From Escherichia coli (lineage in GTDB: Bacteria > Pseudomonadota > Gammaproteobacteria > Enterobacterales > Enterobacteriaceae), in assembly GCF_044647545.1 (NCBI RefSeq), contig NZ_CP172818.1: a stretch of 64,000 nt of DNA; one strand, 5' to 3'. Positions 23,201 to 55,556 of the stretch are shown here, piece by piece (position 1 is the first letter of the stretch; the number at the start of each line of letters is the position of its first letter). Both the position numbers and the translations under genes were made by a program. The notes below the pieces were generated by a model that worked only from the letters and a program-made list of their open reading frames with translations, made no database searches and was not told the origin of the DNA.

Positions 23201-23392
23201 ACTTCGCTGGCATTTATCTTCGGCGTATTGCCAATGGCAACCAGCACGGGTGCCGGTTCCGGTGGTCAGCATGCGGTGGGTACTGGCGTAATGGGCGGGA
23301 TGATTTCGGCCACTATTCTGGCTATTTACTTCGTGCCGCTGTTCTTTGTGCTGGTGCGCCGCCGCTTCCCGCTGAAGCCGCGCCCGGAATAA
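20279..23392 (+). CDS. acrD: RND aminoglycoside efflux pump AcrD
   Basis: 1037-aa ORF, AcrB/AcrD family 12-TM transporter. Confidence 0.95.
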
Positions 23393-23403
23393 GCAATAAA
23401 AAA

Positions 23404-23430
23404 GGCGACATGCTAATGTGTCGCCTTTTT
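23404..23430 (+). terminator. rho-independent terminator after acrD
   Basis: ggcgaca tgctaatg tgtcgcc followed by ttttt. Confidence 0.8.
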
Positions 23431-48794: not shown

Positions 48795-50258
48795 ATGTTC
48801 AGGCAGTTGAAAAAAAACCTGGTTGCAACCCTCATTGCTGCTATGACCATTGGTCAGGTAGCCCCGGCGTTTGCCGACAGCGCAGACACCTTGCCGGATA
48901 TGGGAACCTCCGCAGGAAGCACGCTTTCCATTGGTCAGGAAATGCAGATGGGCGACTATTATGTCCGCCAGCTACGCGGCAGCGCGCCGTTAATTAATGA
49001 CCCGCTGTTAACGCAATATATTAATTCGCTGGGTATGCGTCTGGTTTCGCATGCCAATTCGGTTAAGACACCGTTTCATTTCTTTCTGATCAACAACGAC
49101 GAAATTAACGCCTTTGCTTTCTTTGGCGGCAACGTGGTGCTGCACTCTGCCCTGTTCCGTTATTCCGATAACGAAAGTCAACTGGCTTCAGTTATGGCGC
49201 ACGAAATCTCCCACGTCACCCAACGTCACCTGGCGCGAGCGATGGAAGATCAACAGCGCAGCGCGCCGCTGACCTGGGTCGGCGCGTTAGGTTCTATTTT
49301 ACTGGCGATGGCCAGTCCGCAGGCGGGGATGGCAGCGCTGACCGGTACACTGGCGGGAACGCGCCAGGGGATGATCAGTTTCACCCAGCAAAATGAACAG
49401 GAAGCGGATCGCATTGGTATTCAGGTGCTGCAACGCTCAGGATTCGATCCGCAGGCGATGCCGACCTTCCTCGAAAAATTGCTCGATCAGGCGCGTTACT
49501 CCTCGCGTCCGCCGGAAATTTTATTGACTCACCCGTTGCCGGAAAGTCGTCTGGCAGATGCCCGCAACCGTGCTAATCAGATGCGCCCGATGGTGGTGCA
49601 GTCGTCGGAGGATTTCTATCTGGCGAAAGCGCGCACACTGGGGATGTATAATTCCGGACGTAATCAGCTCACCAGTGATTTGCTGGATGAATGGGCGAAA
49701 GGAAACGTTCGTCAGCAACGAGCGGCGCAATATGGTCGTGCTCTACAGGCGATGGAAGCCAATAAATACGATGAGGCGCGTAAAACGCTGCAACCGTTAC
49801 TGGCGGCAGAACCTGGTAACGCATGGTATCTCGATCTGGCTACCGATATCGATCTTGGGCAAAACAAAGCCAATGAGGCAATCAATCGCCTGAAAAATGC
49901 CCGTGATTTGCGTACCAATCCGGTGTTGCAGCTCAACCTGGCGAACGCTTATCTGCAAGGCGGTCAACCACAAGAAGCGGCCAATATTCTGAATCGCTAC
50001 ACTTTTAATAATAAAGATGACAGCAACGGCTGGGATTTACTGGCACAGGCGGAAGCCGCGCTAAATAACCGCGATCAGGAACTGGCTGCGCGAGCAGAAG
50101 GTTATGCGCTCGCCGGGCGACTCGATCAGGCCATTTCCTTGTTGAGTAGCGCCAGTTCGCAGGTGAAATTAGGCAGCCTGCAACAAGCGCGTTACGATGC
50201 GCGCATCGACCAGTTGCGCCAGCTGCAGGAACGCTTTAAGCCTTATACCAAGATGTAA
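48795..50258 (+). CDS. bepA: periplasmic beta-barrel assembly-enhancing protease BepA (formerly yfgC), M48 peptidase + TPR
   Basis: 487-aa ORF, signal peptide, HEISH zinc motif. Confidence 0.93.
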
Positions 50259-50278
50259 TTCGCATTAAAGGAAGAACA

Positions 50279-50638
50279 ATGACCAAACAGGTAAAAATCT
50301 ACCATAACCCACGCTGTTCAAAGAGCCGGGAAACGCTGAGCCTGCTGAAAGAAAACGGCGTGGAGCCAGAAGTGGTGCTCTACCTTGAGACACCCGCCGA
50401 TGCGGCAACGCTGCGTGATTTGCTGAAAATGCTGGGAATGAATAGCGCTCGTGAATTGATGCGCCAGAAAGAGGATCTTTATAAAGAACTGAACCTGGCT
50501 GACAGTTCGCTTAGCGAAGGGGCGCTGATTCAGGCAATGGTGGATAATCCAAAGCTAATGGAGCGCCCGATTGTGGTCGCGAATGGCAAAGCGCGGATTG
50601 GTCGTCCACCGGAGCTGGTACTGGAAATCGTGGGTTAA
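50279..50638 (+). CDS. yfgD: ArsC-family protein YfgD
   Basis: 119-aa ORF, N-terminal catalytic-Cys motif HNPRCSKSR. Confidence 0.9.
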   Translation: MTKQVKIYHNPRCSKSRETLSLLKENGVEPEVVLYLETPADAATLRDLLKMLGMNSARELMRQKEDLYKELNLADSSLSEGALIQAMVDNPKLMERPIVVANGKARIGRPPELVLEIVG

Positions 50639-50668
50639 GAAGTGCTCCATCGCTAGTTGAAGCACATT

Positions 50669-50702
50669 GCCGGATGCGACGCTTGCCGCGTCTTATCCGG
50701 CC
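50669..50702. repeat. REP element
   Basis: gccggatgcgacgcttgccgcgtcttatccggcc. Confidence 0.8.
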
Positions 50703-50743
50703 GACGAATACTATGGGTGCATATCCGACAATAAACGTCTTGT

Positions 50744-51445
50744 CTACAGTTTCAGAATTTCTTTCACAAACGGAATGGTCAGCTTACGTTGCGCGGTAAT
50801 CGACGCACGATCCAGCTGATCCAGCGTCATAAATAACGTGCGCATTTCTCTGTCGAGCCGCTTCAGCAAGAAACGCCCCACATCTTCCGGCAGTTCAAAA
50901 CCACGCAAACGCGCGCGTAACTGTAGCGCCTGCAACTTATCTTCATCAGAAAGTGGCTGCAATTTGTAGATCTGCCCCCAGTCGAGTCGCGACGCGAGAT
51001 CCGGTAATCCCAGATTCAACTGCCGCGGTGGACGATCGCCGGTGATCAACAACCGTGTTTTGCCCGATTCCAGAATTCGATTGTAGAGATCGAAAATCGC
51101 CATCTCCCACAACTCATCGCCTGCAATACACTCAATGTTGTCGATACAGACCAGCGACAAATGCTCCATACCGTCGAGCACTTCCGGAACAAACCAGGTG
51201 CGTTTATCCAGCGGGACATAGCCCACCGCATCGCCACGCTGCGACAATTCCGCGCAAGCCGCGTGCAGCAGATGGCTGCGCCCCGCGCCTTCGCGTGCCC
51301 AGAGATAGATGTAACCGCTATGTTCCTGACGCAGCACGTTTTGCAGCGCGGCCAGTAAAGAGGAGTTATCCCCCGGCCAGAAACTTGCAAAGGTTTCGTC
51401 GTCAGGAAGATAAAGTGGCAAAGAGAGCTGTGCCGGTGTGTTCAG
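50744..51445 (-). CDS. hda: DnaA-inactivating factor Hda (AAA+)
   Basis: Track ORF is 248 aa from ATG 51490; I recall the functional Hda as 233 aa initiating at the in-frame CTG (51445). Either start gives the same AAA+ protein. Confidence 0.8.
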
Positions 51446-51510
51446 AGATACCTCAACCAGGATTTCACAAAATCGCGAGAAGTTTACCACAGAATCCCAT
51501 GATGTTTGAA

Positions 51511-51531
51511 CCGGGCAGCAACACTGCCCGG
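51511..51531 (-). terminator. stem-loop immediately downstream of uraA stop (candidate terminator, weak U-tract)
   Basis: ccgggcag caacac tgcccgg. Confidence 0.35.
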
Positions 51532-51539
51532 TCGGTACA

Positions 51540-52829
51540 TTATTTGTCTGTTATATCCGCGTCTTCTGCGTCCAGCACCACTTCTTCAGGGCGCAGCATA
51601 CTAATCAGTTTGAAGATCAAACTTAAGCCGATACCGACGATGGTCGCCAGCGCCATACCTTTCAGCTCCGCCGCGCCAATGTTTACCTTCGCGCCACTGA
51701 CGCCGATGATCAAAATAACGGAAGTCAGGATCAGGTTCTGTGCTTTGTTGTAATCCACTTTCGATTCGATCAACACACGAATACCGGAAGCACCGATGAC
51801 ACCGTAAAGCAGCAGCGAAACGCCGCCCATCACCGGCAATGGAATCATCTGGATAGCAGCAGCCAGTTTACCGACGCAGGAAAGCAGGATAGCGAAAATC
51901 GCCGCCCCGCCGATAACCCAGGTACTGTAAACACGGGTGATCGCCATCACGCCAATGTTTTCTCCGTAAGTGGTGTTTGGCGTGGAGCCAAAGAAGCCGG
52001 AGATCACGGTCGACAAGCCGTTAGCAAACATCGAACGGTGCAGACCTGGATCGCGCAGCAGATCTTTTTTGACGATATTAGCCGTTACCACCAGGTGCCC
52101 TACGTGTTCGGCAATAACCACTAACGCCGCTGGCAGAATAGTCAGAATGGCAAACCACTCGAAGCGCGGCGTATAGAGGGTCGGCAGCGCAAACCAGTGA
52201 GCATTAATAATCGGCGTGGTATCGACAATTCCCATTGCGAAAGAGAGCGCGTAGCCCACCAGCACGCCAATTAAAATCGGGATAATTGCCAGGAAACCAC
52301 GAAACAGCACGGAACCTAAAACCGTGACTGCCAAGGTGGTAATGGAGATGATGATGGTTTTGGAGTCTGGCGTTTGCCCTTCAGCCGGGAGTAAACCTGC
52401 CATACCGGCAGCTACGCCCGCCAGCTCCAGACCGATGACGGCAACGATTGCGCCCATTGCCGCAGGTGGAAACAGCACGTCCAGCCAGCCGGTCCCCGCT
52501 TTCTTCACGATAAAAGAAACCAGGCAGAACAGCACGCCGCACATAATAAAGCCGCCCAGCGCGACTTCATACCCTAACGGCAACAGTAACAATACCGGTG
52601 AAATAAAGGCAAAGCTGGAACCAAGATAAGCCGGGATTTTCCCTTTACAGATGAAGAGATACAGCAGCGTTCCTATACCGTTAAATAACAGTACAGTCGC
52701 CGGGTTAATATGAAATAAGACGGGCACCAGGACGGTTGCACCAAACATGGCGAACAAATGTTGCAAACTAAGCGGGATTGTCTGTAAAAGTGGCGGTCTT
52801 TCACTCACCCCGATAGCACGGCGCGTCAT
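51540..52829 (-). CDS. uraA: uracil:H+ symporter UraA
   Basis: ATG at 52829 gives 429 aa [16 protein letters not shown]...; NCS2 family. Confidence 0.92.
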
Positions 52830-52869
52830 AGAATTATCCTCTGTATTATGTGTTATAGGCGCTTTACTC

Positions 52870-52897
52870 AAAAAAAAGCCGACTCTTAAAGTCGGCT
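52870..52897 (-). terminator. rho-independent terminator between upp and uraA
   Basis: Minus strand: agccgact ttaag agtcggct followed by T8. Confidence 0.8.
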
Positions 52898-52914
52898 TTA
52901 ATTATTTTTATTCT

Positions 52915-53541
52915 TTATTTCGTACCAAAGATTTTGTCACCGGCATCGCCGAGGCCCGGAATAATGTATCCGTGCTCGTTCAGTCCCTGGTCAATCGATG
53001 CGGTATACAGTTCGACGTCCGGGTGCGCTTTTTCCAGCGCAGCGATACCTTCTGGCGCAGCTACCAGTACCAGAACTTTGATGCTGCTGCAGCCCGCTTT
53101 TTTCAGCAGGTCGATGGTCGCGATAACGGAACCACCGGTTGCCAGCATTGGGTCAACGATCAGCGCCATACGCTCATCGATGTTAGAAACCAGTTTCTGG
53201 AAGTACGGTACCGGCTCCAGCGTTTCTTCATTACGGTACATACCGACGACGCTGATACGCGCGCTCGGAACGTTTTCCAGCACACCGTCCATCATCCCCA
53301 GACCGGCACGTAGAATTGGCACAACGGTAATTTTCTTACCTTTGATCTGATCGATTTCTACCGGGCCGTTCCAGCCTTCGATAGTTACTTTTTCCGTTTC
53401 GAGGTCGGCGGTCGCTTCGTAAGTCAGCAGGCTACCCACTTCGGAAGCGAGTTCGCGAAAGCGCTTGGTGCTGATATCTTGCTCACGCATCAGTCCCAGC
53501 TTGTGTTTGACGAGTGGGTGTTTGACTTCCACGATCTTCAT
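52915..53541 (-). CDS. upp: uracil phosphoribosyltransferase Upp
   Basis: ATG at 53541 gives 208 aa [20 protein letters not shown]... Confidence 0.95.
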
Positions 53542-53566
53542 ACTCTTTCTCCTTTGAGGGGCAGCC

Positions 53567-53612
53567 ACAAAAAAATCGACGGATTATACCTCCTTTCTTC
53601 AAGGCGGCAATA
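53567..53612 (-). promoter_or_regulatory. upp promoter with T-tract initially transcribed region
   Basis: Minus strand: TTGCCG -N16- TATAAT ccgtc GATTTTTTTGTGGCTGCC; perfect -10, T7 run right after the likely start site. Confidence 0.6.
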
Positions 53613-53785
53613 TTATTTTCGTTGACTTTAGTCAAAATGATAACGGTTTGAGATAAAGTTATTTTGTATTCAAATGGTTATGGAAGAAGATTATTCCATC
53701 CGAAAACGATCCTTTGCCCTGGTACAAGTATTCTTTTGCCGCGCGCCTGGGGAAAAGACGTGCAAAAAGGTTGTGTAAAGCAGTC

Positions 53786-53801
53786 TCGCAAACGTTTGCT
53801 T
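53786..53801. promoter_or_regulatory. PurR operator (pur box) upstream of purMN
   Basis: tcgcaaacgtttgctt, core GCAAACGTTTGC perfect; about 65 bp upstream of purM start. Confidence 0.65.
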
Positions 53802-53846
53802 TCCCTGTTAGAATTGCGCCGAATTTTATTTTTCTACCGCAAGTAA

Positions 53847-54901
<1,055 letters not shown>

Positions 54902-54902
<1 letters not shown>

Positions 54903-55540
54903 TGAATATTGTGGTGCTTATTTCCGGCAGCGGAAGTAATTTGCAGGCAATTATTGACGCCTGCAAAACCAACAAAATTAAAGGCACCGTACGGGCAGTT
55001 TTCAGCAATAAGGCCGACGCGTTCGGCCTTGAACGCGCCCGCCAGGCGGGTATTGCAACGCATACGCTCATCGCCAGCGCGTTTGACAGTCGTGAAGCCT
55101 ATGACCGGGAGTTGATTCATGAAATCGACATGTACGCACCCGATGTGGTCGTGCTGGCTGGTTTTATGCGCATTCTCAGCCCGGCGTTTGTCTCCCATTA
55201 TGCCGGGCGTTTGCTGAACATTCACCCTTCTCTGCTGCCGAAATATCCCGGATTACACACCCATCGTCAGGCGCTGGAAAATGGCGATGAGGAGCACGGT
55301 ACATCGGTGCATTTCGTCACCGATGAACTGGACGGTGGCCCGGTTATTTTACAGGCGAAAGTCCCGGTATTTGCTGGTGATACGGAAGATGACATCACCG
55401 CCCGCGTGCAAACCCAGGAACACGCTATTTATCCACTGGTGATTAGCTGGTTTGCCGATGGTCGTCTGAAAATGCACGAAAACGCCGCGTGGCTGGATGG
55501 TCAACGTCTGCCGCCGCAGGGCTACGCTGCCGACGAGTAA
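54902..55540 (+). CDS. purN: GAR transformylase PurN
   Basis: 212-aa ORF; start overlaps purM stop (TAATG). Confidence 0.95.
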
Positions 55541-55556
55541 TGCCCCCGTAGTTAAA

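Follow-up and report, generated by a model that had tools for sequence, protein, structure and literature searches.

The 64-kb window (the whole stretch of Escherichia coli DNA that was analysed, 64,000 nucleotides) carries upp and uraA one behind the other on the minus strand, and both genes were identified by match to annotated E. coli genomes. upp is the promoter-proximal cistron (52915..53541, 208 codons and the TAA stop at 52917-52915 in the ORF list, 100% match to E. coli upp genes), with a 3' end that reads ...GGTACGAAATAA on the minus strand, and uraA is the promoter-distal cistron (51540..52829, 429 codons and a stop, ATG at 52829-52827). Ahead of upp, scan and sequence gave a promoter TTGCCG-16 nt-TATAAT with the initially transcribed GATTTTTTTG tract (53568..53610, minus strand), which was the only promoter recognised for the operon. 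This promoter region is also the known UTP-sensing site, and genetic work of 1995 reportedly described a bicistronic operon with uraA in second place. In the textbook account, regulation of upp-uraA takes place at the promoter only, by UTP-sensitive reiterative transcription. The upp stop and the uraA ATG are separated by 85 nt (52914-52830), identical in MG1655 (2620161-2620245; MG1655 coordinate = window coordinate + 2,567,331).

On the minus strand this gap begins with an A-rich 17-nt spacer AGAAUAAAAAUAAUUAA leading from the upp stop to a stem (52898..52914), and continues with the 5' arm of a hairpin, AGCCGACU (52897-52890; DNA AGCCGACT), the loop UUAAG (52889-52885; DNA TTAAG), the 3' arm AGUCGGCU (52884-52877; DNA AGTCGGCT) and a U-tract of U8 followed by G at 52869 (52877-52869), the first U of which is also the last base of the stem. 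The uraA leader makes up the rest (52830..52868); it is A/C-rich and poorly conserved, bears the Shine-Dalgarno sequence GAGG at 52841-52838, 8 nt from the ATG, and places the ATG 40 nt past the U-tract. The preliminary description had reported an 8-bp hairpin and T8 on the minus strand in the 85-bp gap between upp and uraA, and sequence, folding and scan all confirmed this: the sequence of the sense strand gives a stem of 8 bp with 5 G-C pairs and a loop of 5 nt. Its statement that T8 follows the 8-bp stem was accurate as to the eight T and less so as to their position, because the run takes in the last stem base, which leaves 7 unpaired T after an 8-bp stem or, equivalently, T8 after a 7-bp stem. 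In addition, three flanking A can pair with three T to give an 11-bp stem with a 3-nt loop.

Folding of the hairpin gave a dG of -15.2 kcal/mol, against -4.65 +/- 2.15 in shuffled sequences (z = -4.91; 0/200 shuffles equal), and a consensus scan of 49000-57000 placed it as the top terminator-like site. When sites were defined by a perfect stem of at least 8 bp with at least 4 G/C, a loop of 3-8 nt and 7 or more T among the 8 nt that follow, three sites of this quality were present in the 64-kb window versus 0.01 on average over 100 dinucleotide shuffles. The d'Aubenton-Carafa score was 34.7 (nT 5.21), where a score >0 denotes a predicted terminator. The plus strand was also called by the scan, with the tail AATTATTTTT; a bidirectional terminator was rejected, there being no convergent gene and the upstream A-tract being clade-specific. 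An Rfam search of the hairpin region returned no family at the gathering threshold, and the best candidates, STnc240 (28.1 vs 55 bits), STnc430 (24.9 vs 47) and AbsR25 (23.8 vs 47), with E-values of 0.29-0.66, were rejected.

When one genome per species was scanned, 80 loci, spread over about 30 Enterobacterales genera, were obtained, 79 of them with enough downstream DNA, and in 79/79 the gene order was upp then uraA on the same strand and the same hairpin stem was found. The 5' arm was AGCCGAC in 71 loci, AGCCGGC in 6, GGCCGAC in 1 and AACCGAC in 1, the 3' arm GTCGGCT in 76 and GTCGGTT in 3, and the T-run was exactly 8 in 75/79, with G next in every aligned representative. The same 79 loci had 26 loop variants differing in sequence and length, the flanks could not be aligned, the intergenic length ranged from 56 to 533 nt with repeat elements inserted on either side of the hairpin, and the uraA ATG lay 24-66 nt past the U-tract in most loci. 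In an alignment of 33 sequences, 231/231 stem cells were paired; seven changes were one-sided, all of them to G.U, and one pair was changed on both sides. In the antisense RNA a G.U variant reads as a C.A mismatch, which means that only the upp-sense RNA keeps its pairing and which also speaks against a bidirectional terminator. The covariation statistic was weak (47/500 shuffles reached the observed score), as the stem is too invariant for such statistics, and the case was therefore built on conservation and controls. Xenorhabdus and Providencia (Morganellaceae) possessed the same element, 7 and 5 nt past the stop codon, respectively. Within E. coli the element is single-copy and occurs in 5425/5426 complete genomes; in the E. 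coli variant that was inspected, foreign DNA begins just past the T-run. Judged from this sequence conservation, the upp-uraA hairpin is under very strong selection, and the data support a genuine, strongly selected element of the intrinsic-terminator type within a presumed single operon.

As controls, we compared terminators and an attenuator of related genes. At the convergent pyrE/slmA terminator, E. coli, Salmonella, Serratia, Pectobacterium, Tatumella and Buttiauxella have kept a hairpin with six different stems. In Vibrio harveyi, Photobacterium, Shewanella and Pasteurella, upp has no co-directional uraA after it (in Photobacterium the gene that follows is convergent and encodes a permease with just 41% identity to UraA), and each of these four outgroups has an intrinsic terminator after upp whose stem is unrelated to those of the others, even within Vibrionaceae, and to the enterobacterial one. 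The rph-pyrE attenuator, AAGGCGACU...AGUCGCCUU, was frozen in 6/6 of the same loci used for pyrE/slmA, with a free loop, the U-tract present and the rph stop codon 4-7 nt ahead of the stem in all six; in Pectobacterium a 346-nt repeat-laden spacer was tolerated. Ordinary terminators with a U-tract had d-scores of 19-34. Thus, ordinary terminators turn over while the upp-uraA stem is frozen as the pyrE attenuator is, and the upp-uraA stem evolves like a regulatory attenuator.

Since it is the stem sequence that is conserved, beyond its structure, we also considered that terminator likeness might be secondary and that the dyad is a sequence-specific site, namely a stretch of RNA bound by Hfq or another protein, in which case the upp 3' end would act as a 3'-UTR-derived regulatory RNA, or a palindrome in the DNA recognised by a dimeric transcription factor. 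Features of Hfq ligands are present in the many A-R-N triplets of the E. coli spacer and in the U-tail that the RNA would have, and the stem is one flipped base pair apart from that of the pyrE attenuator. Against this, the distance between the 7-nt arms varies (6 or 7 nt) and so, freely, does the loop, unlike a DNA operator, the G.U variants suit an RNA and not a DNA palindrome, the A-rich spacer is clade-specific, no Rfam family reaches threshold, and the pyrE attenuator is equally frozen with no known binding factor. Similar G(C/G)CGAC stems also occur in ordinary terminators of the window (23426, 59335), and the likeness to the pyrE stem may thus be due to chance; the idea of a special kinship with that stem was toned down for this reason. 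We therefore regard a binding site as highly improbable.

The distance between the upp stop codon and the stem fell into three ranges: 4-12 nt in 32/79 loci (Yersinia, Pantoea, Dickeya, Hafnia, Edwardsiella, Cedecea, Buttiauxella and others), 16-18 nt in 39/79 (the Escherichia/Citrobacter/Enterobacter clade, which has gained an A-rich spacer of about 10 nt) and 93-182 nt in 8/79, where repeats are inserted. In these eight long-insert loci we found no consistent small ORF ending near the stem, and none with a ribosome-binding site. They have kept the hairpin all the same, which indicates that proximity to the stop codon is common and not obligatory for retention of the hairpin.

A further reading is that the hairpin is a full stop for upp, with uraA transcribed from a promoter of its own, located past the hairpin or else near the end of upp. 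For the latter, a 9/12 promoter-like match exists at 52928-52901 (TTGGTA-16-AATAAT), whose transcript would start inside the 5' arm and be unable to form the hairpin; the high predicted terminator strength would also suit a full stop, and the long inserts past the hairpin in some genera could hold promoters. Yet promoter-like matches in the region number 5 as against 7.7 in shuffles (no excess), the A-rich spacer with its -10-like hexamer is missing from the 32 loci of 4-12-nt spacing, the 24-32 nt between U-tract and ATG in seven loci are too short for a promoter and a leader, and the 79 downstream sequences show no conserved -35/-10 in the uraA leader. Moreover, uraA co-varies with upp and has reportedly been described as part of a bicistronic operon. 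An own promoter for uraA is therefore very unlikely in our view. Two further promoter readings were rejected: T8-G with TTG as a -35, given the 24-32 nt to the ATG in several loci and no conserved -10, and a -10 in the loop from which the T-run would be transcribed reiteratively in the manner of the upp promoter, given that the loop is not conserved.

The spacing is informative in the light of the in vivo work of Li et al. (PMC4824070) on the tR2 terminator, whose efficiency was <10% with a stop codon 5 bp upstream, 0.12-0.8 at 17-18 bp depending on sequence, and about 0.9 beyond 30 bp, and in which the repression was lost once translation was uncoupled. With the stem no more than 18 nt from the stop in 71/79 loci, the hairpin lies in the ribosome-sensitive zone. 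By analogy with tR2, the 17 nt of E. coli would fall outside direct cover by the ribosome and in the tunable middle of the sensitive range, and masking by the ribosome may be weak there, 17 nt being further than the 5-6 nt at pyrE.

Published tables provided a view of how the two cistrons are expressed. In RNA-seq under Pd stress (PMC8533678), upp changed -25.0 +/- 4.2-fold and uraA -59.5 +/- 4.0-fold, about 2.4 times more, although larger fold-changes of uraA could stem from differing mRNA stability or low-abundance effects. The mean logCPM in this dataset was 7.65 for upp (627 nt) and 7.82 for uraA (1290 nt), from which the read density of uraA is about 0.55 of that of upp (one study, equal stability assumed). 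This density indicates that the element is leaky and not a strong stop, and the step-down is compatible with partial termination. In rph+ MG1655 treated with AZT (PMC11228462), uraA was induced 5.7-fold, with a LexA dependence of 6.8-fold and an SspA dependence of 8.6-fold, and stood beside carAB in the top-25 list, from which upp was missing even though it was induced; in the same study the effects on pyrBI and pyrE were mapped to their attenuator terminators. Likewise, uraA without upp was tabulated beside pyrL and pyrD in EDL933 (PMC2907692) and beside pyrEIB, carAB and codB in a Salmonella preprint. In a study of the HU regulon, upp and uraA mostly co-varied, with one condition at 0.07 for uraA versus 0.39 for upp, and the iModulon compendium places both genes in one pyrimidine-responsive i-modulon. 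Paired fold-changes of upp and uraA come from one dataset (PMC8533678), and UTP was manipulated directly in none of PMC8533678, PMC11228462, PMC2907692 and the Salmonella preprint.

Maps of transcript ends were also consulted. In the curated Term-seq lists of Adams et al. 2021 (PMC7815308), which are thresholded and comprise only some 1000 ends for each condition, MG1655 26201xx-26202xx is without a 3' end in all three conditions, and neither upp nor uraA is listed in the TERMITe and SMRT-Cappable-seq supplements, which are likewise thresholded; absence from such lists is weak evidence. K-12 is pyrimidine-limited through rph-1, so read-through would be favoured in it, if the element senses UTP. 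The preliminary description had called the terminator strong, and in vivo this was not upheld, since about half of transcription appears to continue into uraA and the lists of Adams et al. mark no 3' end at the site. Its suggestion that the hairpin sets the ratio of upp to uraA fared better, being in keeping with the density of about 0.55 and the approximately 2.4-fold larger swing of uraA in one dataset. The preliminary description did not mention that the element is frozen throughout the order or that its design is that of the pyrE and pyrBI attenuators, points which suggest a conditional attenuator more than a fixed divider.

A fixed divider would be a constitutive partial terminator that also stabilises the 3' end, giving a fixed upp:uraA ratio and protection from exonuclease with all regulation at the upp promoter. 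Such a terminator would agree with the canonical anatomy, with a hairpin kept in the 8 loci that have 93-182 nt to the upp stop, with no U-rich pause region upstream, with the membership of upp and uraA in the same pyrimidine-responsive i-modulon and with the uraA density of about 0.55. It would leave unexplained the unequal fold-changes (uraA -59.5 vs upp -25.0, one dataset), the appearance of uraA and not upp in the high-amplitude lists of three other studies, and the position of 71/79 stems within 18 nt of the stop codon, in the ribosome-sensitive range; furthermore, ordinary terminators are not frozen at such depth, and the regulated pyrE attenuator is. We consider the constitutive terminator rather unlikely, though it deserves to be kept in mind.

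We propose instead that the element is probably a leaky intercistronic attenuator in the upp-uraA operon, with read-through probably set by the ribosome that finishes upp. Its match to the pyrE and pyrBI attenuators in design, together with the freezing of its stem throughout the order, suggests by analogy a conditional attenuator over a fixed divider. RNA polymerase starting at the upp promoter would transcribe upp and then meet the hairpin and U-tract, where a fraction of polymerases would release an upp-only mRNA with a protective 3' stem-loop and the rest would proceed into uraA. The message for the permease would thereby be kept below that for the soluble enzyme, at an adjustable level. 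A ribosome close behind the polymerase would hinder folding of the hairpin and give read-through, as at rph-pyrE, and scarce pyrimidines or UTP would lead to more read-through, in the same direction as promoter control and with a larger swing in uraA than in upp. The sequence, thermodynamic, conservation and geometric parts of this proposal come from the present analysis, and leakiness and the amplitude of uraA from published tables; from these we infer termination at the hairpin and its dependence on ribosome and UTP.

In the searchable literature, outside which the original gene papers of 1992-1995 lie, we found no description of regulation at the upp-uraA junction. The dyad symmetry was very probably already seen when the genes were sequenced in 1992-1995, and terminators inside operons and pyrimidine attenuators are well-known kinds of element. 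New here are the finding, backed by matched controls, that the stem is frozen throughout the order, its resemblance to pyrE and pyrBI in design and geometry, and an indication that uraA is regulated beyond upp. If the element is a conditional attenuator, the textbook promoter-only account is incomplete, and uracil transport is tuned apart from the level of the salvage enzyme. uraA and upp determine the uptake and activation of 5-fluorouracil and serve as counter-selection markers, and because of these roles the upp:uraA ratio matters for engineering and for work on drugs and the microbiome. K-12 rph-1 strains may run the junction in read-through mode, which is a caveat for transcript-end maps made in K-12. 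We also propose a rule, that a frozen stem amid terminator turnover flags a regulatory attenuator.

Compared with known systems, ordinary end-of-operon terminators likewise consist of a hairpin and a U-tract after a stop codon and have a similar predicted strength, but their stems differ between genera and nothing co-directional lies downstream, whereas the upp-uraA stem is invariant and uraA comes next. Partial terminators inside operons (PMC4824070) also place a hairpin and U-tract between co-transcribed genes, terminate incompletely and reduce downstream expression; they are not usually frozen throughout an order, in contrast to upp-uraA, where the stem is frozen and the amplitude of uraA exceeds that of upp. 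The pyrBI attenuator (pyrL) shares its pyrimidine-responsive expression module with upp and uraA, but it is located in the 5' leader and not between two enzyme or transporter cistrons, inside a 44-codon leader-peptide ORF that spans the terminator, with a U-rich pause region upstream. The rph-pyrE attenuator of E. coli and Salmonella, at about 3815801 in MG1655, is a UTP-modulated, translation-coupled intrinsic terminator (Poulsen, Bonekamp and Jensen 1984; Jensen 1993; both as cited in PMC7818426 and PMC11228462). It resembles upp-uraA in its place between two co-directional cistrons of a pyrimidine operon, in an 8-9-bp stem with the inner core CGACU/AGUCG, in a downstream ATG 32 nt after the U-tract (40 nt at uraA), and in a stem that is frozen across Enterobacterales with a free loop and large repeat insertions tolerated in the spacer. 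The stop codon lies 4-7 nt ahead of the pyrE stem, to which the 4-12 nt of 32/79 upp-uraA loci are comparable; within E. coli the distance is 17 nt at upp versus 5-6 nt at pyrE. Dependence on UTP and on the ribosome is proven for pyrE and predicted for upp-uraA, and the upstream gene is pyrimidine-regulated at its own promoter in the case of upp and not in that of rph. A U-run UUUU(U) precedes the pyrE stem and a U-rich stretch is present at pyrBI, whereas the spacer at E. coli upp is A-rich, and neither it nor the short spacers of other genera offer a U-rich pause region ahead of the stem. For lack of the U-rich pause of the pyrE/pyrBI class, we filed upp-uraA as working like this class and not as a proven member.

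Written in one format, the pyrBI attenuator is AGCCCCUC-AAUC-GAGGGGCU-U7-G (d-score 49.7), the pyrE attenuator AGGCGACU-GAUG-AGUCGCCU-U7-G (46.7) and the upp-uraA element AGCCGACU-UUAAG-AGUCGGCU-U7-G (34.7), and all three have in common an 8-bp stem closed by A.U, a loop of 4-5 nt and U8 followed by G. We tentatively raise the possibility, for which we would claim less than even confidence, that upp-uraA is a third UTP-responsive, ribosome-coupled pyrimidine attenuator of enterobacteria beside pyrBI and pyrE, built on the same blueprint and unchanged across Enterobacterales. If so, UTP would control uracil uptake twice, at the upp promoter, through start-site switching and reiterative transcription, and a second time at the junction of the two cistrons, and this double control would explain why uraA swings more than upp. 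More speculatively, the U8-G tract shared by pyrBI, pyrE and upp-uraA might itself be part of the UTP sensor.

When the spacer between upp and the uracil-transporter gene uraA was compared across loci extracted from other genomes (coordinates local to each locus), we observed a hotspot of repeat insertions in Brenneria, Yersinia, Serratia and Symbiopectobacterium, and the conserved hairpin of the junction, an 8-bp stem followed by U8-G, was retained in all of these loci. The spacer of Brenneria roseae (L070, 3128-3660) carried a tandem array of about five units, each about 90 nt long and bearing one AAAAACGCCTTTGGCGTTTTTTT hairpin, and in Yersinia L057, L064 and L067 an element of 152-167 nt separated the upp stop codon from the conserved hairpin. 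The Serratia and Symbiopectobacterium loci (L044/L055) also had repeat insertions in this spacer, with about 175 nt inserted 3' of the hairpin in Serratia. In one of the 5426 E. coli genomes, that of E. coli B1.H1.39 (L097, NZ_CP146556.1), unrelated sequence (GTGCACAGAAAACCCCCAGC...) began directly after a T7 run at the terminator, from position 103 onward; therefore, uraA is displaced or disrupted there. Outside Enterobacterales, the upp neighbourhood was different: in Photobacterium (L096, 2204-3454) upp was followed by a convergent NCS2 permease with only 41% identity to UraA, and in Aeromonas (L084, 3278-5101) upp was followed by a DUF2066 gene and hda, without uraA, and both shared a purMN-upp-...-hda frame.

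The upp promoter (TTGCCG-16-TATAAT, minus strand, window 53568-53610) was followed by the initially transcribed GATTTTTTTG, whose A-T7-G tract is the published site at which start-site switching and reiterative transcription respond to UTP. This tract echoes the U8-G found at the junction terminator. A canonical terminator, AAACCCTCTGT-TACT-ACAGAGGGTTTTTTAT, was located on the minus strand at 63578-63600, and a perfect 11-bp stem, TGCGGGCCGAC-GAGAAAT-GTCGGCCCGCA (plus strand, 59329-59359), lay directly 3' of a stop codon (ORF end about 59325). The latter had a GCCGAC core in common with the upp-uraA stem, but neither strand carried a U-tract; it may be a stem that stabilises mRNA or a hairpin separating convergent genes.

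For the rph-pyrE locus of MG1655 (L088), which contains the pyrE attenuator, the known intercistronic terminator used as comparison, we found the K-12 rph-1 frameshift, with stop codons at 864-866 and 835-837: the TAG stop of truncated rph, as annotated, is 34 nt upstream of the attenuator stem, and the TGA stop of the wild-type frame would fall 5 nt upstream of it. The pyrE attenuator stem was resembled by that of a bidirectional-looking terminator, AAAAAGGCGACA-CATTAGCA-TGTCGCCTTTTTT (both strands, window 23403-23430), shortly past a 1037-aa plus-strand ORF ending at 23392; stems of such type are therefore not special.
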